A DNA stretch of 64,000 nt, taken from the NCBI GenBank assembly GCA_963808125.1, contig CAWEEP010000007.1, positions 12,820 through 76,819 of the forward strand. Reading direction: 5' to 3'. The stretch is from Candidatus Dormiibacterota bacterium (GTDB lineage Bacteria; Chloroflexota; Dormibacteria; Aeolococcales; Aeolococcaceae). Of the stretch, positions 4,641 through 62,907 are shown one piece after another. The notes under the pieces are model-generated. The model had not been told where the DNA came from. It made no database searches and saw only the letters and a program-made list of their open reading frames with translations. Each line of letters starts with the position of its first letter. The first letter of the stretch is position 1. The translations under genes were made by a program, and so were the position numbers.

Positions 4641-4643
4641 GCC

Positions 4644-12941: not shown

Positions 12942-12957
12942 GCCGCAAACTCGTGGC

Positions 12958-15256: not shown

Positions 15257-15364
15257 TGGCGCCTCACCGTACCACCGCGCGCACTGGCGGGTCCGGCCGC
15301 ACCCCATCGACTCTCCGTCGCTCCGTGACGCCTTCGTCGCCGGTGGCGGGGAGGCGGTCCCGTA

Positions 15365-17395: not shown

Positions 17396-17501
17396 GGCCG
17401 TCCGGGGTCTCACCCCGGCGCCGCGGGCGCCTCTCCACCGGCGATCGCGACGGGGACCTTCAACGGGCCGCACGCCGCGGACACTAGAACTCGCCCGCCT
17501 A

Positions 17502-41833: not shown

Positions 41834-43204
41834 GTGCCTCCCCGTCTCGACATCGATCGCGTGCTCGAGCTGCTCCGGCTTACCGCCGGGGAGCTGGGGA
41901 TCGAGGCCTATCTGGTGGGCGGCTTCGTCCGCGACCGGCTGCTCGGCCGCGAGGGCAAGGACATCGACCTGGTGGTCGTCGGCGGCAGCGGGCTGCGCCT
42001 GCTGGAAGAGGTGGCCGCCAAGCTCGGTTGGCCCCGGCCGGCCGTCTTCGAGCGCTTCGGCACCGCCCAAGTGCGTGGCGGCGACATCGTCGTGGAGGTG
42101 GTCCAGGCCCGCGCCGAACGGTACGACCCCGAGTCGCGCAAGCCCGACGTCCGGCCCGGAAGCCTGGAGGACGACATCCGGCGGCGCGACTTCACCGTCA
42201 ACGCCCTGGCGCAGAGCCTGGACGGGCGGGTCCTCGACCTGACAGGACAAGGGCTCGACGACCTCCGCGACGGTGTCCTCCGCACTCCGCTGGACCCGGC
42301 GGACACCTTCTCCGAAGACCCCCTCCGGATGTTCCGCGCCGCCAGGTTCGTTGCGCAGCTCGGCTTCCGCCTCGCCGGCGGCCTCCCCGAGGCGATGCGG
42401 GCCATGGCCCACCGTGCCACCATCCTCTCGTCCGAGCGGGTTCGCGACGAGGTGTGCCGCCTCCTTGTCTCGCCGCATCCCCGTGAGGGCATGGACACGC
42501 TCCTGGACACCGGCCTGATCGGTGTCGCCATCCCCGAGCTGCTCCCCATGGTGGGGCTGGAGCAGGGGGGATGGCATCTCTACGACGTCTGGGGGCACAC
42601 GGTGCGGGCCGTCGAGCTCGCGCCGCCCGATCTGGTCACGCGCCTCGGCTGCCTCTTCCACGATGCCGGCAAGCTGGAGACGCATGCCATCGCCCCCGAC
42701 GGGAGGCACACCTTCTATGACCACCCCCGTGCCGGAGCAGGGATGGCGCAGGCGGTCATGACCCGCCTGCGCTTCAGCACCGACGAGATTTCCCAGGTGT
42801 CGAGCCTTGTGCTCCACCACATGTGGCCGATCCAATACCGCCCCGACCAGGTCGGCGACGGGGCGGTGCGGCGCTTCATCCGCACGATCGGTCCGCTGCG
42901 GTCGCGGCTCCTGGAGGTGGCCCGTGCCGACACCCGCGCCTCCGCCTTCGAGGACGTCGGGGCGATTGACGAGCTGGAGGAGAGGATGGCCCGGCTCGAA
43001 CTCGGACAACCGGGTGACCCGCCTCAAGCCGCCGCTCGGCGGGCGCGAGCTGATGAGGATGGCGGGGAGGCACGGCGGTCCGTGGGTGGGCAAGGCGCAG
43101 CGGGCTTCGGTGGAGGCAGTCCTCGATGGCGACTCCCCGGCGACGATCCCGAGGCGGCCCGTGCCTGGCTGACCGCCCATCCGGACCTTCTTGCCGGCGT
43201 CTGA
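41834..43204 (+). CDS. cca: CCA-adding tRNA nucleotidyltransferase with HD domain
   Basis: LVGGFVRDRLLGREGKDIDLVV, RRDFTVNALA, and an HD region HLYDVWGHT..FHDAGK. Confidence 0.88.
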   Translation: MPPRLDIDRVLELLRLTAGELGIEAYLVGGFVRDRLLGREGKDIDLVVVGGSGLRLLEEVAAKLGWPRPAVFERFGTAQVRGGDIVVEVVQARAERYDPESRKPDVRPGSLEDDIRRRDFTVNALAQSLDGRVLDLTGQGLDDLRDGVLRTPLDPADTFSEDPLRMFRAARFVAQLGFRLAGGLPEAMRAMAHRATILSSERVRDEVCRLLVSPHPREGMDTLLDTGLIGVAIPELLPMVGLEQGGWHLYDVWGHTVRAVELAPPDLVTRLGCLFHDAGKLETHAIAPDGRHTFYDHPRAGAGMAQAVMTRLRFSTDEISQVSSLVLHHMWPIQYRPDQVGDGAVRRFIRTIGPLRSRLLEVARADTRASAFEDVGAIDELEERMARLELGQPGDPPQAAARRARADEDGGEARRSVGGQGAAGFGGGSPRWRLPGDDPEAARAWLTAHPDLLAGV

Positions 43205-43711: not shown

Positions 43712-44154
43712 AGGTCTATTTCCTGAAAGAGGTTCCGGGAACCGCGCACGCCGGGGAGGTCAAGGAGGTCGCGCCAGGCCACGCTCGCAACTTCCTGTTC
43801 CCCAACAAGGTGGCGGTGGCCGCCGACGACAAGATGGTGGAGCAGATCCGCCAGCGCGAGGAGGCGACGCGCCGCCGCGCCGAGAAGGCGCTCACCGACG
43901 CCAGGGAGCTGAGCGTCCGGCTGCGCAAGCTGACCGTCACCATTTACGCCAAGACGGGTGAGGCGGGCCGGTTGTTCGGCTCGGTCACCAACGCCGACAT
44001 CGCCCAGCAGCTGAAGCGCGAGGCCGGTGTCGAGATCGACAAGCGCAAGATCGCCGTCGACCCGCCGATCAAGTCCCTCGGACCTCACGAGGTGGAGATC
44101 GAGCTGCATCCGGAGGTCACGGAAACACTCCGCATCGTCGTCGCCGCGAGGTGA
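43708..44154 (+). CDS. rplI: 50S ribosomal protein L9
   Basis: MKVYFLKEVPGTAHAGEVKEVAPGHARNFLFPNK.. Confidence 0.93.
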   Translation: MKVYFLKEVPGTAHAGEVKEVAPGHARNFLFPNKVAVAADDKMVEQIRQREEATRRRAEKALTDARELSVRLRKLTVTIYAKTGEAGRLFGSVTNADIAQQLKREAGVEIDKRKIAVDPPIKSLGPHEVEIELHPEVTETLRIVVAAR

Positions 44155-45470
44155 GCACGCCGCCGCAGGAGCTGCGGGGGCCGGCACTAGCGGTTTCCAG
44201 CGTGCCGGCGGGACGGGTGCTTCCCCATGACCTCGACGCCGAGCAGGCGGTGCTTGGCTGCCTTCTCATCGACGCCAACGCCATCGTCGAGATCCGCGAC
44301 CTCCTCGGGCCAGGCGACTTCTACGCTGAGAAGCACGCCGCCATCTGGCGCGCCGCCATCGCCCTTTCAGATCGCGGCGAGCCGGTGGACGTCCTCACCC
44401 TCAAGGTGCAGATGGAGCACGACGGCTCGCTGTCGCGGAGCGGCGGCCTCGAGTACCTCGCCGAGCTGAGCCAGAAGATGCCGACCGCGGTCTCGGTGCG
44501 CCACTACGCCCAGATCCTCGTCGACGCCTCCCTGCGCCGACGCCTCATCTCCGCCGGCGGCGAGCTGACCCAGCTCGCCTTCGACGCCCGCGCGACGACG
44601 GCCGACATCCTCGACGCCGCCGAACAGCGCGTGTTCGGCATCGCCAACTCCCGGCGAGGCCTCGAGGTCACCCACATCGCCCAACTGCTGACCGAGACCT
44701 GGGAGCTGATGGACAAGCGCGCCCGAGCCGCCAGATCGTCCACGGCGTCCCCACGAACTACACCAAGCTCGACGCGGTCACCCAGGGCTTCCAACCCGGC
44801 GAGCTCATCGTCCTCGCCGCACGCCCATCCGTGGGCAAGACCTCGCTCGCCCTCAATATCACCCGCAACGCGGCGGTGCTGGCACAGCGCTCCGTGGCCG
44901 TGTTCAGCCTGGAGATCAGCAAGCAGGCCCTGGTGCAGCGCCTGATCTGCAGCGAGGCCAAGGTGGACGCCTTCCTCATCAGCACCGGACAGGCGGATTC
45001 GCAGTCCTACCAGCGCATCGCCCACGCCATGGACCGCCTGACCCAGGCCAACATCTGGATCGACGACACGCCGGCCCTGCCCATCTCCGAGCTGCGCGCC
45101 CGCGCCCGCCGCATGAAGGCGCAGCACAACATCGACATGGTGGTGGTCGACTACCTGCAGCTGATGCGCGGCGGCCGGCAGGAGTCGCGGGTGGCGGAGG
45201 TCTCCGACATCTCCAGCGGTCTCAAGTCCATCGCCAAGGAGCTGAACATCCCGGTGCTCGCCCTCTCCCAGCTCTCCCGCGAATCGGAGCGCCGCGAGAA
45301 CCGCAAGCCACAGCTGAGCGACCTGAGAGATTCGGGGAGCATTGAGCAGGACGCAGACGTCGTGCTCTTCCTCTACCGTCCAGGCATGCACAAGGACGAC
45401 GTCGATCGTTCGGTCACCGAGCTGCTCGTGGAGAAGAACCGCAACGGCCCGACGACGAAGATCGGGGGGC
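44151..45470 (+). CDS. dnaB: Replicative DNA helicase DnaB: one frameshift (~44,725) and 3'-truncated at a sequence junction
   Basis: PHDLDAEQAVLGCLL.., Walker A ARPSVGKTSLALN, DYLQLM, LSQLSRESE, SGSIEQDADVV, EKNRNGPT... The conserved last ~25 aa and the stop are absent. Confidence 0.88.
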
Positions 45471-45479
45471 CAATCGCCC

Positions 45480-45845
45480 TGAAACAGTCGGTGAACGCGC
45501 TCGCCGCCGAGGACCTCGTCGCCAAGCGCGATCGCATCCGCAAGGCGAGGAACAGCCGGCTCACCTCGAGGATCGTCGAAGGCCTGGAGCACGATCTGCA
45601 TGTCGACACGGTGCTGAAATGTCAAAATCGAGCAGTTGCGCGACGCGATCCGGCGCAGCCAGCTTCCGCTGGTCGCCGCCACCCACGAGACCTTCAAGCG
45701 TTATCGGGACGCAAGGGGAATGACCACGCTGCTGGCCGAACATGAAGCGGTGTTCGAGCATTTGATCGACGGTCGATGGGACGAGACGGTACCGGCGCGC
45801 TGGAGGGTCACCTTCGCCGGTCCGTCGCGCCGAGCATGGCGCTGA
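45480..45845 (+). pseudogene. Unassigned coding fragment (helical, possibly the ligand-binding tail of a transcription regulator)
   Basis: ..IEQLRDAIRRSQLPLVAATHETFKRYRDARGMTTLLAEHEAVFEHLIDGRWDE.. ends at TGA 45843-45845. Codon usage differs from the first 45 kb. Family not securely recognised. Confidence 0.25.
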
Positions 45846-46895: not shown

Positions 46896-48517
46896 TCACC
46901 GACTGCTGGACGCCGTTCCGTCCTCACACTCGGCGTCGCTTGGTGCCGAAGCCGCAAAGTATATAGGCGTCAAGGACTCCAGCAACCCATCCGCCGTCAT
47001 GCATTCGAGGCTTGCAACAAACTTGGGCTGCCTCGCCTGTAACCGCTTATAGGTTTCCTCTGGCGCCCACACAATCAGCAATTCCCTTGAGCGTGTAACG
47101 GCGACGTAGGCGATTCGCCTCTCCTCACGATCCTTATCCGCGGATGACCACCAGATCCCCGATGGGCAAGATTTTCCGGTTGTCGGAGGGCAGACGAAGA
47201 TCGTGACGTCGTGTGTCTCGCCCTTAACGCCGTGCACCGTCCGGACGGGCACCCTTCCCAGCATTGAGAGGGGGGCCGCGGTACCGGGAATGTATTCGCT
47301 TGAGGGCCTGTTCCAGTCCGTCCTCTTCTGGGGCTTCAGCTTGCCGGGAATAAGTCTTAACGAGGTGGGCAGGCCGAACTTGCCGACCTCCTCATTGGCG
47401 ATTGCGCCGATCTGGTTTTGGAGGTCATAAGAGATTTCCGGTGATCGGGAGTTGATTGGCTCGTAAGAGACAGTCCACCGCGAGCCTCTTCCATCGGTTC
47501 GGTTCTACTCCGGCGACCTCCAAGGTCGTGTCCAGTACTCCTTCGTGCCCGAAGATTACAAGGTCTAGGGCTGCCCGGGCTGTTGCCAGCGCTGCACCGT
47601 TGTTCTCCCTGACGGAACAGTACAACTGCACGACTCAGGTGCGAGAGTGGAAGGCAATGGAGCTTTGGGATCGCTTTTGCCATTCTTCCAGTTAATGTCT
47701 CAACGGTAGCGTTTTGTCGTGCAACCACCTTGATGTTCGCTTCGGGCTTGGCACCGCGGATCGCTTCCACCAACCGATTCACTTCGCTGGTCATCTCGTT
47801 GCCAATAACGAGAACTGCCCGTCCTGTTTCTCCAGTAGACCCCAACGAGCCCCCGGACTCCTTTAAATGTGTGGCTACCGATGCGACCGCTGAAGGGCAA
47901 CGACGACTAGTACGGAGCGGTACACGGACCGCGCCGAAATGGATTCGAAGCGATCAAAAAGGTCAGGGCAAGCGCCGTTGAACTCAAAGATGGACTGATC
48001 CGGGTCTCCCGCCAGAACGCCCTGTGCCATCGGCGCAGAGAGTATCGTCAGTATGGCCTTGCCGAGGAAGTAGCCAGTGTCCTGCAGCTCATCAATAATG
48101 AGAAAGGGAACCGCCGAATAAGCTGGTAACAATTCGGGGGCCGTGGATTTGGTGACATGCGATCCTGCTTGCCCAGAACGCCGCGTCCGAATGTGTGAGA
48201 CATCCTGACCGTTTCCACATTTCCCACTTAGCCTTCTTAACGTCTTTCAATTCCTCCCCTGCCAGTGGTTGCAGTGGATGGGCGGGGTGTGGCTTGTAGG
48301 CCAGGGTCGCGCCCTGGTTGTTTTCGCCAATGAACACGCAATCGAAGAGGTTGATCCCCTTATGGCCAACTGTGGCGTTTTGGTCCTTGGCGAACTTGCT
48401 CCAATGACGTGCCCCCCATTCCCCCGCGATCAGCCGCGGCGCTGGAAAGCCTTGTGAACAGAGAACAAAGAACGGGCGAACCAAATAGCGGAACAGGAAT
48501 GAGTCGATTGTTCCCAC
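46896..48517 (-). pseudogene. UvrD/PcrA-like superfamily-1 helicase fragment (N-terminal ~90 aa with Walker A missing; at least 4 frameshifts)
   Basis: GTIDSFLFRYLVRPF (TxHSF-like), FLIIDELQDTG (motif II), GDPDQSIFEFNGA (motif III), TVHGVKGETHDVTIFV and YVAVTRSRELLIV (motifs V/VI), spread over ORFs 48092.., 47875.., 47357.., 47425.., 46896... Confidence 0.7.
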
Positions 48518-48954
48518 GAAGTGTCCATGACCCGTGTCGCCGCCGTGAACAATATGCCCTCCCGGCGCATCCGCCGCTGCGCGCAGACGTTTTTCATCCC
48601 GGCCGGCAGTGGCACACGACCGCGCGATTACCCGCTGATGGTACACGCGGGCGTACGTTCTGGCCGCGGGCAGATCGGCAAAGGTGACTTCCGGGCCAGG
48701 CACCTCGGGCCGCGAATCAATTGCCAAGTAGTGCAGCAATAGAATACGCCAGACAGGGCCGACTTCGCGGCCGGCCGATGTAGTAACGCGTCTGGCCGAT
48801 AAATCCACTGTCAGCAAATCGTTCAAGACGGGAATCCGCGAGCTCCCGTATTCAAGCTGACCCGAGCCATAGCAACTGTTCGGAGCTTCTGATTGCACAC
48901 GGCATTGAAGGCCAATTCGGCCGCACGCCGGAGGTTGTCTTGGAATTCGGGCAT
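48518..48954 (-). pseudogene. DUF3786-family protein, N-terminal two-thirds only
   Basis: ATG 48954. MPEFQDNLRRAAELAF.., GPVWRILLLHYLAIDSRPEVPGPEVTFADLPAARTYARVYHQRVI..LRAAADAPGG fits the DUF3786 core. Runs directly into helicase sequence with no C-terminus. Confidence 0.55.
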
Positions 48955-48981
48955 CCGCGACGGTCCTTGATTTGCTCTGGG

Positions 48982-49037
48982 TAGGGTGCGTGAAACGCAC
49001 CGCCTCCTACAAATTGTGGTGCGTTTCACGCACCCTA
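48982..49037. repeat. Perfect 20-bp inverted repeat; each arm is itself a small hairpin
   Basis: TAGGGTGCGTGAAACGCACC (48982-49001), a 16-nt spacer, then GGTGCGTTTCACGCACCCTA (49018-49037). Each arm contains GTGCG-N5-CGCAC. Lies between the HD-hydrolase stop and the DUF3786 start. Confidence 0.9.
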
Positions 49038-49054
49038 CAAAAATCCACCACCTC

Positions 49055-50580: not shown

Positions 50581-51653
50581 ATGAACCGAAAATTATTTTT
50601 TCTGGCCGTGCTAATTTTGTGTTTTTTTGATTTGTGGTACTGCTCAAGCGATTGTCCAATATACGGTCACCAACCTGGGCACACTGGGCGGGACTGGGAT
50701 AGCTGTGCCTTTGGCATCAACGACAGCGGGCAGATCCTGGCGCAAGGGAAGACACCACCACCGCTTATCATGCTTTTCTTACAGCAGCTCGACAATATGA
50801 CCGATATTGGAACACTCGGCGGAATGTACAGTGAAGCCAAGGCCATCAACACCAGTGGGCAGGTCGTGGGCTGGGCCTATACTACTGGAATTCAGCATGC
50901 CTTCATCTACAGCAATGGAACGATGTGTGACCTTGGCTCACTTGGCCGGCAGAGTTGTGCCTGTGGCATCAACGCCAGTGGAAAGGTCGTGGGCTATTCC
51001 CTCACCTATCAGTACGATGATCATGCCTTTCTCTACAGTAATGGGACAATGACCGACTTGGGCGTACTTGGTGGAGATTACAGCTATGCCTATGGCATAA
51101 ACGACAGCGGGCAAATCGTGGGCTATTCCGATGGTCATGCCTTCCTTTACAGCGGCTCGACGATGAAAGACCTGGGAACACTCGGCGGGACGACTAGCAG
51201 GGCCTATGGCATTAACGCCAGTGGTCAGGCGTGGGATATTCCGATAACAGCGTCGTGTTTCGCACGCCTTCATCTACAGCGACTCGAAGATAGAAAGACC
51301 TGGGCACCCAGGCCGGATCGTATAGCTATGCATATAGCGTTAATGATAGCGGGCAGGTCGTGGGCTATGCCTTGGCCAGCGGCTTTGCCGATCCTCATGC
51401 CTTTGTACTATAATGCTCGAAGATAATCGACTTAAACGCCCTAATCGATTCGCTCTCCGGCTGGACATTGAATGTTGCATATGGCATTAACAACGCCGGG
51501 CAAATCGTGGGGCAAGGCGTTAAGGGCAGTGGGTATCCTCATGCCTTCTTGTTAACACCCGTGCCAGAACCTTCCACGTTCCTGCTTCTAGGTTCCGCAC
51601 TGCTGGGACTTGGCAGGGTTGGGTTAATTCGTCGTGGTGTAATGAAGAAGTGA
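50581..51653 (+). CDS. HAF-repeat extracellular protein with PEP-CTERM sorting signal (several frameshifts)
   Basis: Signal peptide MNRKLFFLAVLILCF... At least 7 repeats of GIN[DA]SGQ[IV]VG....HAF[LI]YS.G.M.DLG[TS]LGG. C-terminal VPEPSTFLLLGSALLGLGRVGLIRR. Confidence 0.8.
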
Positions 51654-51748: not shown

Positions 51749-51990
51749 GTCATCCTGAGCGAAGCGAAGGATCTCTGTGGAAGTGGCATTTTGTCTGCAT
51801 TTTACCTGCAAAACCTTCCGGATTCTCACTGCGCTCGAATGACGACTATAATCTTCGCCGGCATCAGAATAACGTGAACAAGATTCTTCGCCGCGCACGG
51901 TCTGGTTTGACAGAGATTCTTCGCTGTGCTCAGAATGACATGACTAGATTCTTCGCTGTGCTCAGAATGACATGGCAGTTCAGAATGACA
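51749..51990. repeat. Cluster of ~25-29-nt GTCATYCTGAGCGAAGCGAAGRATC-type repeats in both orientations
   Basis: GTCATCCTGAGCGAAGCGAAGGATCTC at 51749-51775. Reverse-orientation copies at 51821-51843, 51851-51872 and 51881-51900 (degenerate). Two identical 29-mers AGATTCTTCGCTGTGCTCAGAATGACATG at 51914-51942 and 51946-51974. Partial copy at 51980-51991. Confidence 0.85.
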
Positions 51991-52028
51991 TTACTGTTTT
52001 AGGATAGAATCATAGACTACCAACCCGT

Positions 52029-53440
52029 CTAGCCCTTTGACTTTTTTGAGAAGAGAAACTTGGTCGCGTGCAGAGTTTTGGCAAGGAATCCATGGCGTGC
52101 GGCGATTAACAAGACTTTCCCACACAGTCGCCAGGCGGTCATCGGGCGAGCCAGGCGGGTTTTTGGGAGATGCGTTGGCGGAATCGCAGCAGTTCGTTGC
52201 GAACGGCCTGAAAAAACGCCGATTCCCGGCGGGCGAGGAGCAGATCTGTTTCCCCGGACGACGGAGGACAGATGGCCAGGCGTTTTTTCGGCACATAATC
52301 CGAGCGTTTCGGCCGCAAATTGGCAACGGGCCGCCATTAGGCCCCTTCGCCGGTTGAGCACCCCGATTTGGCTCTGCTCGGATCCGTCCGGCGGCGATGC
52401 CGCCGCCTTCGCATTCGCCCGAGGTGAACAACGTCGAGCAGGATGCGGCTGATTTCTTCGCTGCGTGAAATCACGAGGCTGGTCCCTCGCTTATCCGCTT
52501 GATATTCGGGCAGCCAGGCATCCATGAACGTTGCATCGGCCAGTTTCGGCAAACACATCGTCGCAGAACAGGCAGCTTCGGCAGCATGCCGACCTCGTTG
52601 ATCCACAAATAACCGAACAGGCCGAGCATCCTCACGGAGCGCACGGATTGGTCCGTTTTCAATTCCGCCCGATAATCGCGGCCGGTGTGCGAGTAACGCT
52701 TGGAACGATATCGCAAGACGCCCTGGGAGCGGCCCATCAAGGCCGTCAACAGATCGGCAAAAAGCAGGCTGCGATAGCCGCTGCAGGTGAGCCCGAGGAT
52801 ATAGCGGATCCGGCGCCGCAAGGCCGGCAGGCGTTTTTGCGCCAGCCGAAGGGCCTTGGCCGCGCAGGGAAGCGCGACAACGGCGTATGAGCGATCCGGC
52901 CCGGCCAGGACGTCGGAAATCGCCTTGTCGAAAGGAGCGACGTGATAGACCGAACCCCGGGAACCAGAACCTGCGATTCGCTCTCGGGCGACTGACCGAA
53001 TGAAACCATGGGCGTCGGTCCAGCGGTTGAAGCACGATTGCCGCGTCGATGCGCTTGAGTTTCAGCAGTTGGCACAAGACCGCCGTGGTCAAGGCCGCCG
53101 GAGGGGGCTTCCAGTCGCCGGGCCTCATCGGCGACGCCGCCCACGAAAGCGTCGCGGACCCAGCCCATCGACGCATGATGCACGCAGGCCGGATCCGAGC
53201 CGAACAATTCCTTGCCGAGGCTGTCTTCGTCCCGCCGTGTTCGTTGGAAAACGGGCAGACCTGCAGGCACAAGCGGCACGACTCGGCGCACTGTCCCGTG
53301 GCCGCGGGATGATACTCGCCCAACTGGGTTTCCTTCATCTGCAATTGACGGCGCGGACAAACGGCGGCGCACATGCCGCAGTTGCAGCAGTAGTCCTGCC
53401 GGACCACGGTATCCAAGATGTTCATCGGAGGCAAAGTCAA
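52029..53440 (-). CDS. FrhB/FdhB-like (coenzyme F420 hydrogenase beta-type) Fe-S flavoprotein of polysaccharide-modification clusters; multiple frameshifts
   Basis: N-terminal ferredoxin motifs CCNCGMCAAVCP and CRLCLQVCP. Internal ..SGGL.T.., ..ESESQVL.., ..RIRYILGLTCSGY.., ..ADATFMDAWLPEYQADKRGTSLVISRS... ATG 53440 overlaps the pyruvyl transferase stop. The 3' end is uncertain. Confidence 0.6.
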
Positions 53441-54693
53441 TTCGAGGCCCCTCGTTCCCGGAGGAGTTGTTGCAGGAATTCGCCGTTTTTCCAGGCGGTT
53501 TGGGAATAATCCGGGATAAACGACTGCAAATATTCGCGCACCGCGGCTTCTTCCTCCAACAGCGATTGAACCCGCTCGGCCGCTTGTCCGGCGTCAAGCT
53601 GGGCGACGTGGACCACCCAGTTCTCATGTCCGAAAATATCGCGAAAGATTCCCCGGGATTTGATGCTGTGTCCGATGCAGAACGCGGGGACGCACGACGA
53701 CAGGGCGGCGATGATGGAATGCAGGCGCGAGCCGACAAAAACCTTCAGCCGGGAGATTACCCATTTGATTTGCTTGCTGGAGTGGCGCCGGGCGTCGTAA
53801 AGAAAAATGTCCTTTTTCTTCTCCGGCGGCAGCGCATCGAGCAGGGTTCGCATGAATTGGTAATCGTCGTTGTCGGGAAAGATCTGCGGCGGCATCATGA
53901 CATGGGGTATCAAGACGATGGGAAGATCGGTTATCCTCCGAATCGCGGCCAACATGTCCAACGCCTGCCGCATCCACGCGCGCGAGGAAAGGTTGTTGTA
54001 TCTTTTCATCAGCGGCGCCAGGTTGACGCCCAGCGCCCCGGCCTGCAATGCCTGCTCGATTTCGTGCGGCAATTCCACGGGGCAGGCGGGCAAAAGAAAT
54101 GCCGGATCGGCCGCCCGGCGGATATTGTCGCGCACCCCAAGCCCCTCCAAATACTCTTGCGTGATCGGTTCCCGAACGGTAATTAAATCGACCCGGCGGA
54201 GCAGATCGGCGAATCGGCTTTCCCATCCTGGTCTTTTGGAAAAGGGGCCGATTGATGCTCCCCAGACGACTGTTGGGACGCCTTTGCGGACCGCGGCCTG
54301 AAGCGGGCTGAAAAACAAGAGCGTGGCCAGAAAACCGTAATCGTAAGACAGATTATCTCCGCCCAGCGCCAGCAGAGCCGCCGCGTTGTCCAGGGCACGG
54401 TGCGCTTTCATTGCCGGAAACCGGCCCAAAAAGCGGGAACAAACGATCCGCGTGCCCCAGAGATAAAAGGCCGGCGTGCCCTGCCGGCGTGTTTCCCATA
54501 TTTGTCCCGCCGATTTAGCGTCCGGCTCGTTGGTAACGAATTGAGGATCGTCGTTGCAAAAAATGTTGGCATACAATCGCGGATAATCGGGCAAGTAACG
54601 ATCCAAAATCATTTGCGTGCTCAACCGCAGGGCCTGGCAGCCGCGGTTGCTGTCGAAGTTGTTGCCGTGCAGTACAATATAGGGATGGTTCAT
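53437..54693 (-). CDS. Polysaccharide pyruvyl transferase (WcaK/CsaB family)
   Basis: Intact 418-aa ORF. HGNNFDSNRGCQAL, LALGGDNLSYDYG, ITVREPITQEYL, FVGSRLHSIIAALS. Confidence 0.8.
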   Translation of the reverse strand: MNHPYIVLHGNNFDSNRGCQALRLSTQMILDRYLPDYPRLYANIFCNDDPQFVTNEPDAKSAGQIWETRRQGTPAFYLWGTRIVCSRFLGRFPAMKAHRALDNAAALLALGGDNLSYDYGFLATLLFFSPLQAAVRKGVPTVVWGASIGPFSKRPGWESRFADLLRRVDLITVREPITQEYLEGLGVRDNIRRAADPAFLLPACPVELPHEIEQALQAGALGVNLAPLMKRYNNLSSRAWMRQALDMLAAIRRITDLPIVLIPHVMMPPQIFPDNDDYQFMRTLLDALPPEKKKDIFLYDARRHSSKQIKWVISRLKVFVGSRLHSIIAALSSCVPAFCIGHSIKSRGIFRDIFGHENWVVHVAQLDAGQAAERVQSLLEEEAAVREYLQSFIPDYSQTAWKNGEFLQQLLRERGASN

Positions 54694-54944
54694 GGTATTT
54701 TATTTTTTATTGGCGGCATTCTCAGTATACAGTTCTTACTAAAGACTGCAACCTCTTGGCGCATCACGACCGACTGAATATACTTTTTCCGATCCTTGAT
54801 ATAGTTTACACAGCATTGTTAGCAGAATAATCGATCGTAAATTGGAAAATCTATGACCGGATTCAGTATTAGTATAAGTTTTGATTCTCGTTGCTTTAGC
54901 GATAATCTCAAGGATTTCTCGCGATTGCCTTTATCCGGGCGATC
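54694..54944. promoter_or_regulatory. AT-rich divergent promoter region
   Basis: 251 bp at ~38% GC between divergently oriented starts (54693 minus, 54945 plus). Several TATAnT-like hexamers (GATATAGT, GAATATACT). Confidence 0.4.
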
Positions 54945-56115
54945 ATGCGTTTTCGTCAGGGACTGGCCCGCGATCCCACTTCTCCACGGACGGCGGTCGT
55001 CTTGTGTCTGCGAGGCCGCGACCCGTTCCTGGAGAAGTGCCTGGAATCGCTGCTTAAGCAGGATTATCCCGACTACCAGTTGCACGTGGTCGTCGACAAT
55101 CGGCAGGACCCGGCGTGGCAAGTCGCCGAGTCGCTGGCCAACCGCTACGGCGCGGACCGGGTGTGCATCGAGGCGCTCGACGAGCGCCAGGACACGTGCA
55201 GTCTGAAGTGCAGCGCCGTGACCCAGGCGATCGGAGCGTCTCGACGAGTCGTTTCAAGCGGCGGCCCTGGTCGACGCCGACACGATGCCGCATCCGTCGT
55301 GGCTCGGCGAACTGACGGCTCCCCTGGCGGATGAGCACATCGGCGCCGCCACCGGCAATCGCTGGTACATGCCCGGGGCCGGTTCCTGGGGCGCGATGGT
55401 GCGTTATCTCTGGAATGCCGCGGCCATGGTGCAGATGTATTGGTACGAGATACCCTGGGGCGGAACGCTGGCCGTCAAACGCAAGGTGATCGACGAACTG
55501 GGGCTGCTCGACCGCTGGCGCAACGCCTTCTGCGAAGACACCATGCTCTTCCGGCAGCTCGGCAAGCGCGGGCTGCGCGTGAAGTTCGTTCCCTCGTTGA
55601 TGATGGTCAACCGGGAGGATTGCGGGCTTGGGGCCTGCCTTTCTTGGATCCGCCGGCAACTCCTCACGGCGCGGCTCTATCATCCGCTATGGCCGCTGGT
55701 CTTGTTGCACGGATTGGGCACCACGCTGGTCCTGGCCGCCGCCGTGGCGCGGCGGCGATTGCCGCGCTGCGGGGCGATTGGTCGGCGGTCCTGTGGTGCG
55801 CAGGCGGCCTGCTGATTTATGAGACAATCATGGTTTCCCTGCTGATTCCCATGGAAATCGCGTGTCCGCCGGATCGTGCGGTCGCAGGGCGGGCCGACAG
55901 GGTGGCTTTCGGCGAAAACTCTCCTTCGCCTGGTTCCGGCCATCGTGCTCACGCAGTTGGTTTACACGCTCGCCTTGCTCGGGGCCCAGTTTGCGCGGAA
56001 GGTCGACTGGCGTGGAGTCTGTTACCACATCGGCGGTCCTTGGGACATTCGGCGGCTGGACGATCCGCCCTATGATTCAGAATTGCCATGCGTCGCGGAT
56101 GGGCATTCGCTCTGA
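54945..56115 (+). CDS. Membrane GT2-family glycosyltransferase (GT21/ceramide-glucosyltransferase-like architecture); at least 3 frameshifts
   Basis: VVLCLRGRDPFLEKCLESLLKQDYPDYQLHVVVDN, LVDADT (DxD), WGGTLAVKRKVIDELG, FCEDTMLF, then TM helices (LWPLVLLHGLGTTLVLAAA..). The tail ..VDWRGVCYHIGGPWDIRRL ends at 56115. Confidence 0.7.
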
Positions 56116-56137
56116 AAAGCTGAATCGGTTGGGTGCC

Positions 56138-56162
56138 ATGCCCACGCTTGGCGTGGGCATGT
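56138..56162. terminator. Perfect 11-bp stem hairpin between convergent genes
   Basis: CATGCCCACGC-TTG-GCGTGGGCATG. Confidence 0.5.
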
Positions 56163-56237
56163 TGAGAACGCGTGAGAAAACTGCGCCAAGACCCACGCAA
56201 GCGTGGTGCATGGCACCAGGCACCCCTTGCCCGTAAA

Positions 56238-57576
56238 TCACTATCGAATGCGGCAATCGAGGCGTGGATCCGCCGCACGAAGGTTTCCAGCAGGTCGGTC
56301 GCCTGTTGTTCCGTCAGGGGCCGGGGGTCGTAATGCAGGGTGATGCCCAGCCTGTGGGCGTACAGCGCAACGACAATCGTCACGCACGAGTAAGGGCGCA
56401 CGGGCGCCACGAATATCCGTGTCCTCAAGCGTCACGTTGCCGGCCACAATGACATTCGTCGCGGCGGGGCAAGGGCACATGTGCCAGAAGGTTTCCCACA
56501 TTCGTGAAGATGCAGGATATGGTGCATTTGTCCGCGCGAACCTTCTTCTCCAATCCGCCCAGGAATCGCCGGCAGATGGCCGTGGAAAAAATGAAGGTAA
56601 AACCCAGTTGCAAACGCTTGATCAGGTCCATCTCCTCGTGGATGCCGCGGAGCAACCGGTCGGGATCGGCGAAATCCGGCCCGCGACGGTCGAGGAACAC
56701 GCTGCTGACCATGTTGGCGGCCGGCATCGAGTCGATCGTCTGTCGAGCGCAGATTCATGGGAATCATCATCCGCAACCAACTGCCGTCGTCGTCGATATT
56801 CTGCCGCACGCGCCATTCGGCCAATCGCCAGGAACAGGTCGCGGGCCAACAGGTCGTTGGAGGTCACTCCCTGGCGCATCGCCGCCTTTCGCATGCCGGC
56901 AGTGGCCTCCCGATCGAAGAGGTAATGCACCATCGCCGGGTAGGTTTTCGGCAACGGGGAGTCGTCGGGACAGGCGCGATGGGGAATCAGCGGGGCGGGC
57001 TTGCGCATCAGGAATTGCCGGGCGCCGAGAAGGCCCACGAGCTGCTTGCGGCGCCATGCGGAGCAGCTTTCTCAGAGTCAAACCGAATCGGCCGCGACCG
57101 GCCAATTTGCCGGGATCGAGCGTCGGCAAGCCGGGCCCGGTTCGGCGCAGTGCCATAGGCCATGGCATAGGCGACCAACAGCTCCCTGAGGAACAAGGCG
57201 AATCCCGCCCCGTCGCAGCAGGAGTGGTGAAACTGGATGGTCAGGTCGGAGTCCGTCGCCTCGGTGCGGACGTGGAAACGAATGCCGATCTCCCGCCGCA
57301 GATCCAATCGCGTGGCCGGGGGCAACGGGCCGCCGACCGGAGCGATTCCCACTTGATCGCGGGTGCGGGATTATCCACAGTGGACCATCGCAGCCGGCCG
57401 CCGGCCGCATGTTTCGATCTTTGGCGGCCAACAAGAGGATGACGCGCCAGGACTGTGCGCACGGCCGACTCGAACGCCGCCCGATCCAGACATCCCGAAA
57501 ACCGCAGGCGGACAAAACAACTCCAAGGATAGGCGGGCCGGTCCTCCCAGTAAATAAACTCCTCCATGGTCGTCAA
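56238..57576 (-). CDS. Stand-alone condensation-domain acyltransferase (HHxxxDG family: NRPS C / PapA5 / WS-DGAT-like); at least 4 frameshifts
   Basis: MTTMEEFIYWEDRPAYPWSCFVRLRFSGCLDRAAFESAV.. and the catalytic motif IQFHHSCCDGAGFALFL. Downstream pieces are ..GVTSNDLLARDLFLAIG.., ..MMIPMNLR.., ..NMVSSVFLDR.., ..LGITLHYDPRPLTEQQATDLLETF... No adjacent A or T domains. Confidence 0.65.
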
Positions 57577-57591
57577 GTGGCAAAGACAAAC

Positions 57592-58435
57592 TCATGGCGG
57601 ATTCTCCTGTTTTTCCGCGTTTCCCCTTTTAAAAAGCCTCTGCAAAATGCCGCGGTGCATCATCCAAGTAATCACCCGGTGCGAGAAAAAGCTCTTCAAA
57701 GTGTAGAATTCCCGGAAATGTTGCGAAGATCTTTCGTCCTGCCCGATTTTTTGAAAGAGGATCATATTTTTCACCGGGCAGCGCATTTTCCGATAGTCTT
57801 TGCGGTTCCGCCGTATGAACGAACCGACCAATTGCGTGCCTCGCATCCAGGCGTCGTGAAAAAGTACGTAGCCTTGATCCGCAAGAAGCAAGTCGACGTA
57901 AAAAGAAATCGACAAAAATCGAATCGTAGCGGTGGTTGCCGTCAATAAAGGCGAAATCAAAACTCCGCTGGGCGGTAAGCAGTTGAGGTAGCACTATGTA
58001 GGAATAATCCGGATGGAAATCCAGCCGCCCGCTATATCCCAACGAGGCGATGTTCTCCAAGCCCAGGTTGCCATATTGATCTTGAAAGGGATCCATACAC
58101 GTATGTGTGCCATGGTGCGCCGACATGATCGAGCAGGCCGAGGCCCCGTGGGCCAGTCCGATTTCCAGGGTCCGGCTCAGATTATGTTCCTTTACCCAAC
58201 GGTGCATGAATTCTCCTTCCACCGGGCGGACGGAAATATAGCGCTTTGCCTCCGGAATGCGAATCCGCCCAAGCAATTCTATAATATCCACATTGGCATT
58301 ATCAGGTGCGGGCGAAGCGATATTATCGTGATACATGACAGGCCTCTTTCGCCGGATTATTTTCAGATAAATTGTCGCCTGTTCAAGCATTTCCAAGAAA
58401 GTCTCCCGGCTTGAATGCTGAAATTGAAATCCCAA
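57592..58435 (-). CDS. Class I SAM-dependent methyltransferase (Methyltransf_24 / O-MT family 3-like); one frameshift ~57,915
   Basis: LEIGLAHGASACSI, FAFIDGNHRYDSIFVDF then (shifted) FYVDLLLADQGYVLFHDAW. The alternative start ATG 58390 removes most of the overlap with the upstream gene. Confidence 0.7.
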
Positions 58436-59312
58436 CTCGCTGAACCAACCGGTTGGAGGCCACGAGCCAGGGATAGCGGAGAAAGTAGAGGAAACCCGGC
58501 GGATATTTGTGGGGCGGAAAATGCGTCTTCCACGCCATCCAGGCCAAGAGCCGTCCCAGCCAAAACGGCGCGCTCATCCGCCGCCGACCGGTCAGCTCTC
58601 CGAGCTCCGAGATAGAGATGGTATCGGGCGGAGCGAGATTGTAGGCTCCCGTTCCCTGTCGAACCAGAATCCGGTGAATCGCCGCCGAGACGTCGTCCTC
58701 GTGCACCAATTGAATCGCCGAATCGACGCCATCCAGCAAGACGATAATCGGCATCTCAAAGAGCAGATGCCGCAAATAATTGTCCATGCGGGGACCGCCC
58801 ACAATGCACGGCCGCACACAACTCACGGCAATTTGCGGATGTTCTTCGGCGAACCGGACGAGCATCGCTTCCAGTTCGACCTTGTGGGCCGCGTAAGAGA
58901 ACTGGGGTCCTGCCCGACCCGGCCAGGAGTCGTCCAGCGGCACCGGGTTGTCCGGCCAGGCGCCCAGGGCCGTGGCGCTGGAAGTGACCAATAGGCGTTC
59001 CGCCCCGCTGCCGCTGTCGCCTCTAAAACATTCCGGCTGCCCTCCAAGTTAATCGCGTGCATCTTCCGCTCATCGTGCATCGGCGGCACGACAAAGGCCA
59101 TGTGGACCACCGTGTCGGGCTGGAAGATCTTCAGCGCTTCCACAAGCTCCGGGCGGCGCATGTCGAGTTGGAGGAACTCGTGACCGCCGGGATCCCGAGG
59201 CGGCACGATGTCCAAGCCCAAGATCTTCAACTTCGGGTTCGTGCCAGGCGAAGTATCGAATCAGACTACTTCCCAAATAGCCCGAACTGCCTGTGATAGC
59301 AATGCGTTTCAT
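58383..59312 (-). CDS. NAD-dependent epimerase/dehydratase (extended SDR); two frameshifts
   Basis: MKRIAITGSSGYLGSSLI (GxxGxxG), ..DTVVHMAF.., catalytic YAAHK, ..VRPCIVGGP.. Confidence 0.75.
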
Positions 59313-59366
59313 CCAATGTGCCGGCCAGAAGTGTGCTGTTCTGCGGGATCAAAGATCGATGGGGTA

Positions 59367-60859
59367 TTATAATGACGGTTCGACGAGCCGAGCAATTCCA
59401 CGAACCGCGGCGGCCTGGAGTATCGCGGCTAGGAGCACTCGGCTCCAATCCGTTCCCCTCGATGACCACGCGGCCGATTCGCACTGCCTCGGCAGCCGCC
59501 AGATCGCTATCGCCCAAAGCCCGAAAAGTATGTGCATCGAGTTGGAAAACCGCCGAACACTGCGGACCAAGTCCGTCTTCGACCTCCGTCAACCGGCCGT
59601 TGTGCAACATAAGCTTCCACTGTCCTCCGGCAGGCCCGCTTATGTCCAATCCGAGGCAGTGATTTCCCCAAAGGTTCGGAACCATGCGGCATGTGGTGGC
59701 GGGGCAATTTGTGCATGTGATCGTGGATATCAAAGTCCGGCCGGATCCTTCGGCGCTGAGTTCTTGCCGAAATTGCTTTGGATGGCGTAGCGCACAGATT
59801 CAGAAGCATTGCCGCGTCCATCTCCGGACATGCCAGCGGTGCACGCAGCCGCCCGTTGAGTATCGTCGAATTGCGGATCGTCGCGCCAGATAGGCCCGGT
59901 AAATTTCCATCTGCTGGCGGAAATTATCGAGGAACCAGTCCCCGTTGCAGAGTAAAAGATCCTTTTCGTCGGCCAGGGTGGAATACTCTTCCACGGCATG
60001 TTGTATTACATTGGCTATCAGCGTAAGCGTGGGCGGCCGTTGTGTAACCAAATGGTAGGTTCGGCCATGCAAGGCTTTTGGGAAAAAATGTGCGTAAGCA
60101 CCGCCGAGACCCAATCGACAGGCACAAGATTCTTGCATTCCTTGCCTGTCAGTCCCAAACCTTCCACCAGGTAATGCCCGGCCGTGGAGCCGCGCACCAT
60201 CCGGCTGACCAGAGTGTGCACAACTTCACCATCACGTAAAAACCGTGAAATGTCGCCGTATAGCCCGTCTGGGAATCGCCCACGATGATTGACGGGCGAT
60301 AGATCGTGGGCGGATCGATCCAGGGACTGGCCAAGACCAGCTTCTCGGCCTCAATTTTGCTGTGTTCGTAAGCGTTTCCGGGCGTTTGGCCGACGTCTAA
60401 CTCGGTCTCCAGCACTCGACCCTGGCGCAGCCCGCACACATATGCAGTGGAAACATAATGTAATTGGCGGATCCCCGCAGTGCGGCAAAGATCGAGGATC
60501 CGCCGCGTGCCCTCGAGGTTGCTGAGCCAAGGTTCGCCATCTCGTCCGTTGCTATGGAATGTCAGGTTGGCGGCATTATGAATCACGGAGCGGCAATGTC
60601 GCGAGATCCACCGCAGGTCGCCGCCGTCCAGACCAAGATCCACCTCGGTCAACTCGCCCTCGATCACCACGGGCCGAGGCAAGGGTGTCCGAAGTTCGGC
60701 TTCAAAACGAGATAAGATCGATTCGATCCGTCGCCGAGCCGATTCGCGTTTGGACGGACGCACAAGCACGGCCAGACGATGTCCCTCTCGGAGACTATCT
60801 CGCAATAAATATGATCCCAGCAGCCCAGTGGCGCCGGTGAGCAAATGGTATGTCATCAC
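59367..60859 (-). CDS. Thioester/fatty acyl reductase (NAD_binding_4, 'male sterility' type) fused to a C-terminal SCP2 lipid-binding domain; several frameshifts
   Basis: LLTGATGLLGSYLL, VIHNAANLTF, HYVSTAYVCG, NAYEHSKIEAEKLV (YxxxK), IYRPSIIVGDSQTG. C-terminal GLDISGPAGGQWKLMLHNGRLTEVEDGLGPQCSAVFQLDAHTFRAL..GRVVIEGNG. Confidence 0.7.
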
Positions 60860-61051
60860 TAGACCTTTGGCAGACTTAATAGATTAAACAAAATTTGCTT
60901 TCCACCGCTAATCAAAACGACACAAACTGCCGATGAGCACATCACGTCGTGCTCTTGATTACTGCTTTAAGGGATGCATAGCCCCCAATGCCGCATTAGT
61001 GGAGATTACCTAATATCATCTTCATGATGGAAGGGATCGTCAAGCGGGTCA

Positions 61052-61533
61052 TTGACCATAAAATCTAACCTGGTCCATCTTTTTTCCCCGAGAGTTACTA
61101 CTACCCCGAGACGGATCGACATGGCTATGTGTTCAAACTGGACGTGTTGCCCCCCGCGTCGGGGAAATCCTAGCCAAGATCGGCAAGAAGGCGGGGGTGG
61201 TGGTCAACAAGGCCGATGGGAAGTTTGCAACAACCCATGACCTACGCCGATCTTTCGGCCAAATGGGCAAAGAAGGTAATGCCGGCCGTCTTGCAACGGC
61301 TTATGAGACACGCGAACATTGCCACCACGATGAAATACTATGTCACCCTGGACGCCTACGATCTGGCCGCCGAACTTTGGGCGGGATTCGGTCCAAGAGC
61401 GGGCAACGAATTGAAAAACGGCAACACTTGCGGCAACACTCAGCCCGAAACGGCTGAAAATGATATAACGGGCCCCGCCGAAACATCGACGGAACCCGTT
61501 ATAAGCGAACATCTTGGGGATTTGCTATCTTAG
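61052..61533 (+). mobile_element. Tyrosine recombinase (phage integrase) C-terminal remnant, frameshifted, N-terminal ~200 aa missing
   Basis: ..KFATTHDLRRSFG.. (box I/II region) and (shifted) ..VLQRLMRHANIATTMKYYV (HxxxxxT..Y catalytic Tyr). Confidence 0.75.
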
Positions 61534-61862: not shown

Positions 61863-62394
61863 ATGATTCACTTTATTTGTTGTGGTTGTGGTGCAGCACT
61901 AAATATCGGCGACAAATGGGCCGGGCTTCTCGGTCGCTGCCCGCACTGTGGTACGAACACACGACTCCCCGGTTACCCAAAACGCACTTCGAAGTTGCTT
62001 ATCTTGTTTCGCATTGGTTGTATCCCTTTTGCGATAGTGTTTTTTTGGGCCTTGATGTTATCGATTGCTGATGCAGATCTAGCTTTCCACTTCATTCTGG
62101 GTGCAGTAATTGCGTTTGCTGTAATCATGCTTTTCCTATGGGGAGTGTACAAATCTTCTCACGTTCCTTTCTGGACCAAGAGAATATCTTTTGTGGAAAA
62201 GGGGTGGAGGAGATCCATTTTTTGATACGATCGATGGACCGTTAAATAATGACCCTCCAGAGGTCAGATTTCAAGAATTATTTCGTGAGAAGGCACGACA
62301 GGAGTGGGAGGCTAATTTTGGCCCACTACCGATGCCTAATTCTACGCCTCCTTCAGATTCCACAAAAGGTATCGACGACCCGGACGTAATTTAG
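61863..62394 (+). CDS. Zinc-ribbon membrane protein, paralogue 1 (one frameshift ~62,165)
   Basis: MIHFICCGCGAALNIGDKWAGLLGRCPHCGTNTRLP (CxxC..CxxC), then 2-3 TM helices. The tail (shifted) is LWKRGGGDPFFDTIDGPLNNDPPEVRFQELFREKARQEWEANFGPLPMP..DSTKGIDDPDVI. GGAGA Shine-Dalgarno. Confidence 0.65.
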
Positions 62395-62403: not shown

Positions 62404-62907
62404 ATGATTAACTTTAACTGTGCTAGTTGCCATAAATCATTGTACATTCGTGATGCAATGGTTGGGAATCTAGCCGCTTGTCCGTATTGTTGGGCGGAGA
62501 CTGTGGTACCGAATAGTCCGATGCGAACTTCAAAGCTGACAATCATAGGACGTATGGTAGCTATACCGATGATAGTGGTGTGTGCCGTCGGTGCTTTGTT
62601 AGGAGCACCGGTGATTATTGGAGGTGCAATTGGTCTTGCTCTTATGCTTGGATTCTGGTGGGCTTTCACCAACATTGGCACATTTTTGATGAATCCAGGG
62701 TATTACCGGCTTTGGAAAAGGGGCGGGGGAGATCCTTGGTATGACTCAATAGATCCCACCGTTTAATAATGACCCGCCATCTGTTCGTTATCAAGAAATG
62801 TTCGGGAAAAGGCGAGGCAGGAGTGGGAAGCGAGTTTTGGCCCATTACCAATCCCGTCTCTTCCTCCCGATTCGACAAAATGGATCGACGATCCGAACGT
62901 GATTTGA
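62404..62907 (+). CDS. Zinc-ribbon membrane protein, paralogue 2 (two frameshifts ~62,760 and ~62,805)
   Basis: MINFNCASCHKSLYIRDAMVGNLAACPYCWAETVVP, then TM helices. The tail is LWKRGGGDPWYDSIDPT/(shift)NNDPPSVRYQEMF/(shift)EKARQEWEASFGPLPIP..DSTKWIDDPNVI. AGGAG Shine-Dalgarno. Confidence 0.65.

Follow-up and report, generated by a model that had tools for sequence, protein, structure and literature searches.

The stretch analysed here (the window) is 64 kb of contig CAWEEP010000007.1, deposited as Candidatus Dormiibacterota; all positions follow its own numbering, and L-numbers denote loci or contigs that carry homologues. At 56238-60859 it holds four tightly packed minus-strand genes, which encode a thioester reductase fused to an SCP2 domain (TR-SCP2), an extended short-chain dehydrogenase/reductase (SDR), a Methyltransf_24 enzyme (MT) and a free-standing condensation-type acyltransferase (C-like). 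We establish the domain identities and the intactness of these genes, the fusion, the operon structure and the co-occurrence of the genes across genomes, in which the reductase, the C-like acyltransferase and a membrane glycosyltransferase of family 2 (GT2) form the core and the SDR is frequent. We infer a route, with its substrates, step order and product: the gene set may well turn a fatty-acyl thioester into a glycosylated, esterified envelope lipid, the reading that we favour, at about even confidence.

Gene models and operon structure

A first-pass annotation, made from the sequence alone, had described four co-directional genes carrying five domains. All four are present on the minus strand, and each of the five domain calls holds. 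In Pfam searches of the raw open reading frame (ORF) fragments, NAD_binding_4 was matched at 8.5e-44, Epimerase at 5e-5 and 3e-6 in two fragments, Methyltransf_24 at 6.9e-11 and Condensation at 4e-4. TGATGLLGS and YEHSK, cited for the reductase, and FHHSCCDGAG, cited for the C-like protein, were located, and the SDR shows TGSSGYLGS and YAAHK. The first-pass annotation had also proposed that the frames be repaired; frameshift-aware alignment against intact orthologues restored four full-length proteins. These are given here with the gene that converges on them:

60856..59370 (59367 including the stop), minus strand: TR-SCP2, 492 aa, 8 frameshifts
59735..60856, minus strand: thioester-reductase (NAD_binding_4) domain of TR-SCP2, TGATGLLGS Rossmann motif and YEHSK catalytic motif, 6 frameshifts repaired
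59367..59734 (including the stop), minus strand: SCP2 lipid-binding domain, fused in frame to the reductase
59312..58326 (or to 58323), minus strand: SDR, 327-329 aa, 4 frameshifts
58339..57598 (or 58336..57592), minus strand: MT, 247-248 aa, 1 frameshift
57595..56255 (or to 56238), minus strand: C-like acyltransferase, 443-445 aa, 10 frameshifts
54853..56115, plus strand: GT2, convergent with the operon, from Pfam and NCBIfam matches and hydropathy

The junctions are operon-like: the MT stop and the C-like start overlap as ATGA, the SDR stop and the MT start overlap by 14 nt, and the gap between TR-SCP2 and the SDR gene is 54 nt. The 3' end of the C-like gene is uncertain, since indels near 56238-56249 let the assembled frame continue to 55949.

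Frameshifts as errors of the assembly

The four operon genes are broken by 23 one- or two-base frameshifts. Once repaired, none of them contains an in-frame stop, and in the short-read metagenome-assembled genome (MAG) Thermoguttaceae SPRUCE 80 (L006), which is colinear with window positions 52051-60596 at 91-92% nucleotide identity, every gene of the block is intact. Moreover, comparison of the repaired window genes with L006/L007 gave ratios of nonsynonymous to synonymous substitution rates (dN/dS) of 0.14-0.31 across the seven block genes. Thus, the breaks are assembly indels and not decay, and are best read as uncorrected consensus errors. Across 52000-61200 we counted 50 frame-breaking indels relative to L006, and the differences comprise 28 single-base insertions and 15 single-base deletions, mostly outside homopolymers. 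Nanopore errors of the homopolymer type were considered as the source and rejected, as only 7 of the 50 fall in runs of at least 3, the majority being single-base insertions at scattered sites. In L001, a second relative assembled from long reads, the breaks lie at positions other than those of the window, and the polysaccharide pyruvyl transferase (PvT) gene of the block has no indel in 1254 nt, the chance of which at the average rate is well under 1%.

The many frameshifts in the window also speak for a reading in which the C domain and the reductase are remnants of a decayed megasynthase, that is, of a nonribosomal peptide synthetase (NRPS) or a polyketide synthase (PKS). The first-pass annotation had named such decay as the finding that would overturn its own reading. 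The intact short-read orthologues, the lack of in-frame stops and the low dN/dS, which indicates purifying selection, all argue against it, and single-base insertions spread over all genes are what is expected of consensus errors. In an exhaustive profile search, the C-like family comprised 1498 clusters (50% identity) at E <= 1e-30, and its best 150 representatives are all stand-alone proteins of 326-507 aa that cover the full profile. Moreover, signature motifs of adenylation, carrier and ketosynthase domains were found in none of the six frames of the 64-kb window, so that the absence of adenylation and carrier domains noted earlier for the vicinity of the operon holds for the whole window. 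We therefore give megasynthase debris next to no probability.

A genuine fusion of reductase and SCP2 domain

The reductase scores 150 bits with PF07993, against a threshold of 20.1, and has both GxxGxxG and YxxxK. Its best sequence match in the Protein Data Bank (PDB) is the MxaA terminal reductase (4u7w, 1.8e-21), and a TR of a type I PKS is matched at 2e-14. The terminal reductases of the MxaA type, from PKS and NRPS, are thus its best solved relatives and share the Rossmann motif and YxxxK, whereas the window enzyme is stand-alone, with no carrier domain upstream and with SCP2 at its C-terminus. The orthologous reductase of L002 matches PRK07201 (1.9e-39, N-terminal part of the model), which we take to be a fatty acyl-CoA reductase type, and TIGR01746 (9.8e-38), where its 130.3 bits stay below the thioester-reductase cutoff of 213.35.

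The SCP2 fusion described in the first-pass annotation is real. TR-SCP2 is a single uninterrupted ORF of ~495 aa in eight independent genomes (L007, L008, L031, L032, L043, L046, L067 and L074) as well as in L006, and the C-terminal 120 aa match Pfam SCP2 in eight of eight orthologues, the best at 1.1e-7. The window copy scores 16.7 bits and its closest orthologue 19.3, against the PF02036 gathering score of 21.3; a precomputed PF02036 assignment is carried by 12 of the 28 matches of an SCP2-profile search in a large protein database (fragments only). Within the PDB, the profile built from the orthologues finds SCP2 proteins and alkylsulfatase C-terminal domains. The AlphaFold2 (AF2) model of the region has a predicted local distance difference test score (pLDDT) above 90 over the domain, and all 44 Foldseek matches with E <= 1e-3 are SCP2, UbiJ-SCP2 or SCP2-like domains of alkylsulfatases (target-normalised template modelling score, TMt, 0.5-0.7); one of these alkylsulfatases (2cfz) was crystallised with 1-dodecanol. 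The fusion occurs in ~10 of the 26 reductase-bearing loci, and the reductase lacks SCP2 in some relatives, L002 and L086 among them. We found no description of a stand-alone reductase with a C-terminal SCP2 domain in the literature searched.

A condensation-type acyltransferase

HHSCCDG occupies residues 121-127 of the C-like protein (codons from 57229), and HHxCxDGxG is invariant in 22 homologues (H122, H123, D127 and G130). The AF2 model (pLDDT 91.2) has the complete two-lobe fold of a C domain, which is chloramphenicol-acetyltransferase-like. Foldseek matched it at 2e-22 to 2e-17 (TM 0.6-0.72) to structures of condensation, epimerization and cyclization domains, PapA5, SgcC5 and TRI3, with AzeD, the SrfA-C C domain and CDA-C1 among the matches; these three, PapA5 and SgcC5 lie at 1e-18 to 2e-22. 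Membership of the condensation superfamily is assigned because of this fold and motif and not by the PF00668 score, which is 19.6 bits for the window fragment and 26.1 for an intact orthologue, below the gathering score of 30.6. The curated models of particular acyltransferases were not reached either: for wax synthases/diacylglycerol acyltransferases (WS/DGAT), TIGR02946 gave 33.7 bits (1.8e-8) against 309.95 and WS_DGAT_C 18.3 against 20.7, and for PapA5/PapA, NF006787 gave 29.2 bits (4.4e-7) against 396 and PF16911 16.3 against 30.

Two further observations concern this family. At 14164-15507 (plus strand) of L002, just past the GT2 gene, there is a second and more typical PapA5/WS-like acyltransferase (PapA_C 1.6e-10, WS_DGAT_cat 8e-6), and therefore some versions of the module carry two acyltransferases. 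In addition, GenBank often mislabels members of the family, among them P0147, P0185, P0200 and P0233, as 'chromosome condensation protein', evidently a corruption of 'condensation domain-containing protein'.

The conserved core and its distribution

The block conserved among relatives runs from 52030 to ~61180, beyond the four genes that the first-pass annotation had taken as the unit. That unit was drawn too narrowly: the convergent GT2 gene, which it left out, belongs to the core. Within 10 kb of the C-like gene at 85 loci, we counted GT2 at 30, the reductase (TR) at 26, the SDR at 19, SCP2 at 10, MT at 4 and PvT at 3 (PvT and its FrhB/FdhB-like neighbour, FrhB, at 3-4). Among the 16 loci with a flank of at least 5 kb on each side and a C-like identity >46%, GT2 is present in 12, TR in 11 and both in 11. 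Moreover, L086 has a bare TR>C>GT2 operon amid unrelated genes, in which TR and C overlap and 33 nt separate C from GT2. Therefore, the core is the reductase, the C-like acyltransferase and the membrane GT2, with the SDR as a frequent companion, and SCP2, MT, PvT and FrhB are extras of particular lineages. In 7 loci, the neighbourhood also includes a lipid exporter of the MMPL family. A MacB/DevC-type exporter, as in heterocyte glycolipid systems, was considered as a constant partner and rejected, being present in only 2-3 loci. Distant C-like paralogues (<=41% identity) have other neighbours, for example an alpha/beta hydrolase in 9 loci.

In a scan of one genome per species, the C-like family was found in 243 genomes, nearly all of Planctomycetota, and its carriers include Pirellulales, Thermoguttaceae, Planctomycetaceae, Phycisphaerae and Sedimentisphaerales. 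Among the cultured carriers are Novipirellula, Aporhodopirellula and Bythopirellula, with the strains Novipirellula sp. SH528, N. rosea JCM 17759 and Aporhodopirellula rubra CECT 8075.

A reductase next to an HHxxxDG acyltransferase had been read in the first-pass annotation as the logic of lipid alcohol and ester formation, and the comparative data fit this, with PapA5 as the best PDB match of the C-like sequence profile (2.7e-8), MxaA as that of the reductase, and the synthase neighbours described below. The bacterial wax-ester pathway likewise joins an NAD_binding_4 reductase with an HHxxxDG acyltransferase. The locus could accordingly be one of plain wax-ester or neutral storage-lipid synthesis, in which the reductase, with or without the SDR, would supply fatty alcohol to a divergent wax synthase, and GT2 and the other neighbours would be unrelated. 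A reductase, an aldehyde/alcohol SDR and an HHxxxDG acyltransferase do make up the full enzyme set, and weak WS/DGAT matches exist (the TIGR02946 match given above and WS_DGAT_C at 0.0026). However, the shortfall from the WS/DGAT cutoff is large, the matches to PapA5 and to NRPS C domains are equal or better, and a match to a known wax-ester system, which the first-pass annotation had seen as a possible objection to its own reading, is thus lacking among the curated wax-ester and PapA models. The most constant neighbour, found also in the three-gene operon of L086, is a linked membrane GT2 that has no role in wax synthesis, and the MMPL exporters and dedicated synthase of relatives suggest an envelope lipid that is exported. 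We consider wax-ester synthesis unlikely.

The membrane glycosyltransferase and the SDR

The GT2 protein matches the generic Pfam models Glyco_tranf_2_3 (8e-19), Glycos_transf_2 (1e-11) and Glyco_transf_21 (9e-9), and scores above the thresholds of PF13641, PF00535 and PF13506. The protein has four hydrophobic helices, one N-terminal and three towards the C-terminus, as well as a VDAD motif. Its best curated match is HpnI (1.2e-23), with which, as with GT21 enzymes, it shares the GT2 catalytic domain, the DxD motif and an N-terminal plus several C-terminal membrane helices. It differs in scoring 83.6 bits against the cutoff of 310 of the HpnI equivalog TIGR03472, and in having no hopanoid genes nearby.

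The SDR orthologue scores 91.3 bits (8e-26) with PF01370, and the two window fragments 23.2 and 27.4, against 20.9. The protein matches sugar epimerases about as well as lipid-acting SDRs (3-beta-HSD/NSDHL, OleD and HpnA). Within the PDB, UDP-glucose 4-epimerases are matched at ~1e-11 and NSDHL at 1.6e-9; Pfam 3Beta_HSD is matched by the orthologue at 1e-10; and of the NCBIfam models, HpnA (3e-11, 42.7 bits against 368), OleD (6e-8) and GalE (26 bits against 262) all stay below cutoff.

These matches bear on a reading as hopanoid or sterol tailoring, with SCP2 as the carrier, the 3-beta-HSD-like SDR and the reductase acting on the ring lipid, an HpnI-like glycosyltransferase and esterification by the C-like enzyme. 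HpnI is the best curated match of the GT2, both the SDR and the reductase weakly match HpnA (the latter at 6e-11), the SDR matches NSDHL and 3Beta_HSD, and SCP2 is the sterol-carrier fold. Against this, the scores with hpn models lie far below their cutoffs, neither a squalene cyclase nor any other hpn gene occurs in the annotated neighbourhoods, and the reductase, a thioester-type enzyme, is built into a fatty-chain synthase in relatives. Hopanoid or sterol tailoring is in our view very improbable.

Accessory genes of the window lineage

MT is a class I S-adenosylmethionine-dependent, O-methyltransferase-like enzyme; with PF13578 the window ORF scores 43.4 bits and the orthologue 57.5 (2.9e-15), against 26.3, and Methyltransf_3 is matched at 5.5e-9. 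It is present in L006, L007 and L031 and missing from the close relatives L001 and L008. We treat the label 'sugar-modifying', given earlier to both the SDR and MT, as unproven. Two further minus-strand genes lie beyond GT2:

53437..54693, minus strand: PvT, 418 aa, intact
51991..53440, minus strand: FrhB/FdhB-like 4Fe-4S flavoprotein, ~476 aa, 9 frameshifts, overlapping the PvT stop

PvT matches Pfam PS_pyruv_trans at 6e-32 and NCBIfam CsaB at 3e-18, the latter below cutoff; it is colinear in L006, L007 and L031 and confined to the closest relatives. The FrhB-like orthologue matches FrhB_FdhB_C (1e-18), FrhB_FdhB_N (7e-13) and Fer4_21 (6e-6).

Since PvT and its usual FrhB-like partner adjoin GT2 in the window, L006, L007 and L031, the triad might instead provide a pyruvylated surface glycan with its lipid primer or anchor, the glycolipid being extended elsewhere, in the manner of the PKS-containing rkp/wcb capsule regions. 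PKS genes within polysaccharide loci have a precedent in wcb and rkp (PMC3908369). However, no flippase, polymerase, chain-length or further glycosyltransferase gene is found in the annotated blocks of L089, L086 and L002, and PvT and FrhB accompany the C-like gene in only 3-4 of the 85 loci. Such a primer seems to us improbable.

Synthase-linked versions of the module

In L035 (Novipirellula sp. SH528), L029 (N. rosea) and two Aporhodopirellula species (L034 and L037), the C-like gene is flanked on one side by a divergent GT2 and on the other by the convergent gene for an uncharacterised 2607-aa synthase. The Pfam order of the synthase is that of a single module that ends in a TR: ketosynthase (KS), acyltransferase (AT), dehydratase (DH), enoylreductase (ER), ketoreductase (KR), acyl carrier protein (ACP) and NAD_binding_4. 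In L035 it occupies 11288-19111 (minus strand) of the locus (NZ_CP197418, around 1.416-1.437 Mb) and overlaps the C-like gene by 41 nt. The short Novipirellula contig L050 holds just the C-like gene and the ACP-TR end of the synthase, and in L016 and L022 a PKS lies upstream of the C-like gene, with an SDR gene between them in L016. Therefore, a fully reducing fatty-chain synthase can, through its terminal domain, take the role of the reductase. This linkage ties the module to long saturated chains on a carrier protein and makes the C-like enzyme a 'PKS-associated protein' in the sense of PapA. In species papers, the type I PKS clusters of Pirellulaceae are given as antiSMASH counts and nothing more (PMC13190842).

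Comparison with known systems

In Mycobacterium, PapA acyltransferases serve phthiocerol dimycocerosate (PDIM), sulfolipid and polyacyltrehalose synthesis; papA5 sits with mas/pps, and PapA1-3 acylate a sugar. The C-like enzyme resembles PapA5 and its relatives in being a free-standing two-lobe condensation fold with HHxxxDG, with PapA5 matched best by sequence within the PDB and strongly by fold, and its gene adjoins a type I synthase in Novipirellula and Aporhodopirellula. It differs in that identity to PapA5 is ~15%, the window has no PKS and the phylum is another; moreover, the mycobacterial systems are without a stand-alone TR-SCP2 and a membrane GT2.

The heterocyte glycolipid (hgl) island of cyanobacteria combines a PKS, a thioester reductase, an epimerase-dehydratase SDR, a glycosyltransferase and exporters (PMC11804610). 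Its logic is alike: a thioester reductase frees the fatty or polyketide chain in the form of a fatty alcohol, to which a glycosyltransferase adds a sugar. By contrast, it has a multi-subunit PKS and no condensation-type acyltransferase, whereas the window has the SCP2 fusion and, as we propose, an additional esterification step. Of the hgl-type set, the window has the reductase and the glycosyltransferase but no PKS, and loci of the L035 type have all three, a likeness in gene set. Neither the PapA systems nor the hgl island has the TR/C-like/GT2 triad.

Proposed pathway

The route proposed here is read from domain families and gene neighbourhoods. With NAD(P)H as reductant, TR-SCP2 would convert a long-chain acyl thioester to the aldehyde and, probably, further to the primary alcohol, while the fused SCP2 domain would hold the hydrophobic chain. 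The substrate in this lineage would most likely be an acyl-ACP or acyl-CoA of primary metabolism, whereas in Novipirellula-type relatives the chain would be built on the dedicated KS-AT-DH-ER-KR-ACP-TR synthase. The extended SDR may either finish the reduction of aldehyde to alcohol or prepare a nucleotide sugar. At the inner membrane, GT2 would then glycosylate the hydroxyl of the lipid, much as HpnI, a GlcNAc transferase, acts on bacteriohopanetetrol and the GT21 glucosyltransferases on ceramide or diacylglycerol. The HHxxxDG histidine of the C-like enzyme is predicted to serve in attaching a second acyl chain, as an ester, to a leftover hydroxyl of either the aglycone or the sugar, and MT, as well as PvT with its FrhB-like partner, would decorate the product further in this lineage.

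Several points weigh against this route. No carrier or acyl-activating enzyme is present in the window, so the substrate of the reductase is a guess. MxaA-type, two-electron and four-electron reductases are not separable here by sequence, and the SDR fits sugar or lipid metabolism alike. Enzymes of the C-domain type often make amides and can even dehydrate, and the top fold match, AzeD, is deposited as a dehydratase. Lastly, ~40% of the sampled C-like homologues (<=41% identity) lack these partners within 8-10 kb.

The preference of condensation domains for amides leads to another route, in which the reductase would halt at the aldehyde and this would be transaminated to a fatty amine or amino lipid, N-acylated by the C-like enzyme to a ceramide-like product and glycosylated by the GT21-like enzyme. 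DegT-type aminotransferase genes lie within 10 kb in 5 loci, and GT21 is, by its Pfam name, the ceramide glucosyltransferase family. However, an aminotransferase is absent from the window, from the colinear relatives and from the minimal L086 operon, and none of the annotated loci has a serine-palmitoyltransferase-like gene. We give the amide route a small chance, and retain the glycosylated, esterified lipid as the preferred product.

More tentatively, and with less confidence than in the route itself, we suggest that the product of the triad could be an envelope lipid class so far undescribed for Planctomycetota: a glycosylated fatty alcohol or diol of long chain with a second, ester-linked acyl group, glycerol-free and derived from a reduced acyl thioester. 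It might carry O-methyl and pyruvyl groups in this lineage and, in some species, depend on a dedicated iterative synthase and on MMPL export. The first-pass annotation had known of no described pathway with this architecture; our full-text literature searches likewise found none, and no paper on the TR/C-like/GT2 module.

Origin and surroundings of the block

The GC content is 70-72% in window positions 1-46400 and falls to 48-60% from ~46.5 kb. The high-GC part holds genes for the CCA enzyme (41834-43204), L9 (43708-44154) and a frameshifted DnaB (44151-45745), and its L9 belongs to a 90%-identity cluster named Candidatus Dormibacteria, whereas the low-GC lipid block is 88-92% identical to MAGs of Thermoguttaceae/Pirellulales. 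Given this GC break and the Dormibacteria-like L9 as against a Planctomycetota-like lipid block, the contig is probably a cross-phylum Dormibacteria/Thermoguttaceae assembly chimera; a very recent transfer is less likely. Close to the GC break, at 46896-47264, is a fragment of a UvrD_C helicase.

What surrounds the block is not the same in L001, L031, L007/L008 and the window. In L089/L031, a 2.6-Mb contig of Pirellulales MFD04408, the seven-gene block is bracketed by IS21 (rve and IstB), DDE_Tnp_1 and Tn5-type transposases (locus positions 1857-5936 and 15652-17070). In the window, the block is preceded at ~61130-61533 (plus strand) by the C-terminal remnant of a tyrosine recombinase, HDLRRSF ... 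LMRHANIATTMKYY, in two frames; once joined, it matches Pfam Phage_integrase at 1.4e-7 over profile positions 112-166 of 172. In L008 the remnant is likewise conserved beside the operon; its conservation in L007 is weaker (76% identity). Overall, this suggests that the block moves as a cassette within Pirellulales. No terminal repeats were found around it, and a plasmid origin found no DNA or protein match in PLSDB.

A consensus scan gave two candidate signals of the operon, both of them pattern matches only:

61015..61043, minus strand: sigma-70-like promoter match (9/12), ~160 nt upstream of the TR-SCP2 start
56181..56200, minus strand: terminator-like hairpin with a T run behind it, in the intergenic space past the C-like gene where this and GT2 converge

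Other features of the flanks were also recorded. Four tandem copies of a 29-nt unit, spaced 32-33 nt, lie at 51848-51974 in the intergenic gap at the edge of the conserved block, and two of them are identical (AGATTCTTCGCTGTGCTCAGAATGACATG). At 61863-62394 and 62404-62900 (plus strand) there are two tandem paralogous gene pairs with 76-80% DNA identity; the first gene of each encodes a small zinc-ribbon protein (CxxC...CxxC) with two hydrophobic helices, and Pfam gave no match. A perfect 21-nt inverted repeat with a 16-nt spacer lies at 48981-49038, beside a DUF3786 gene (48092-49000). The plus-strand gene at 50581-51653, split by a frameshift, encodes a protein of ~42-aa GINxxGQxVG repeats with a PEP-CTERM signal at its end (Pfam 2.7e-6), and PEP-CTERM genes flank the block in the window, L006 and L088. 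A link to PEP-CTERM/exosortase cargo was considered and rejected as chance, the motif occurring at 0.0148/kb within 4 kb of C-like genes and at 0.0110/kb farther away.

Implications for the planctomycetal envelope

No principle is overturned by these findings, and all of the chemistry has precedents. They describe a large family of free-standing condensation-type acyltransferases outside the NRPS, wax-synthase and mycobacterial contexts, and a natural fusion of TR and SCP2 that is relevant to the engineering of fatty alcohol production. The envelope of Planctomycetota is chemically poorly known, and many species descriptions in this phylum list 'unidentified glycolipids'. The triad, every part of which is a tractable enzyme, is a concrete and testable candidate for the synthesis of one such lipid, in at least 243 genome species, several of them cultured.

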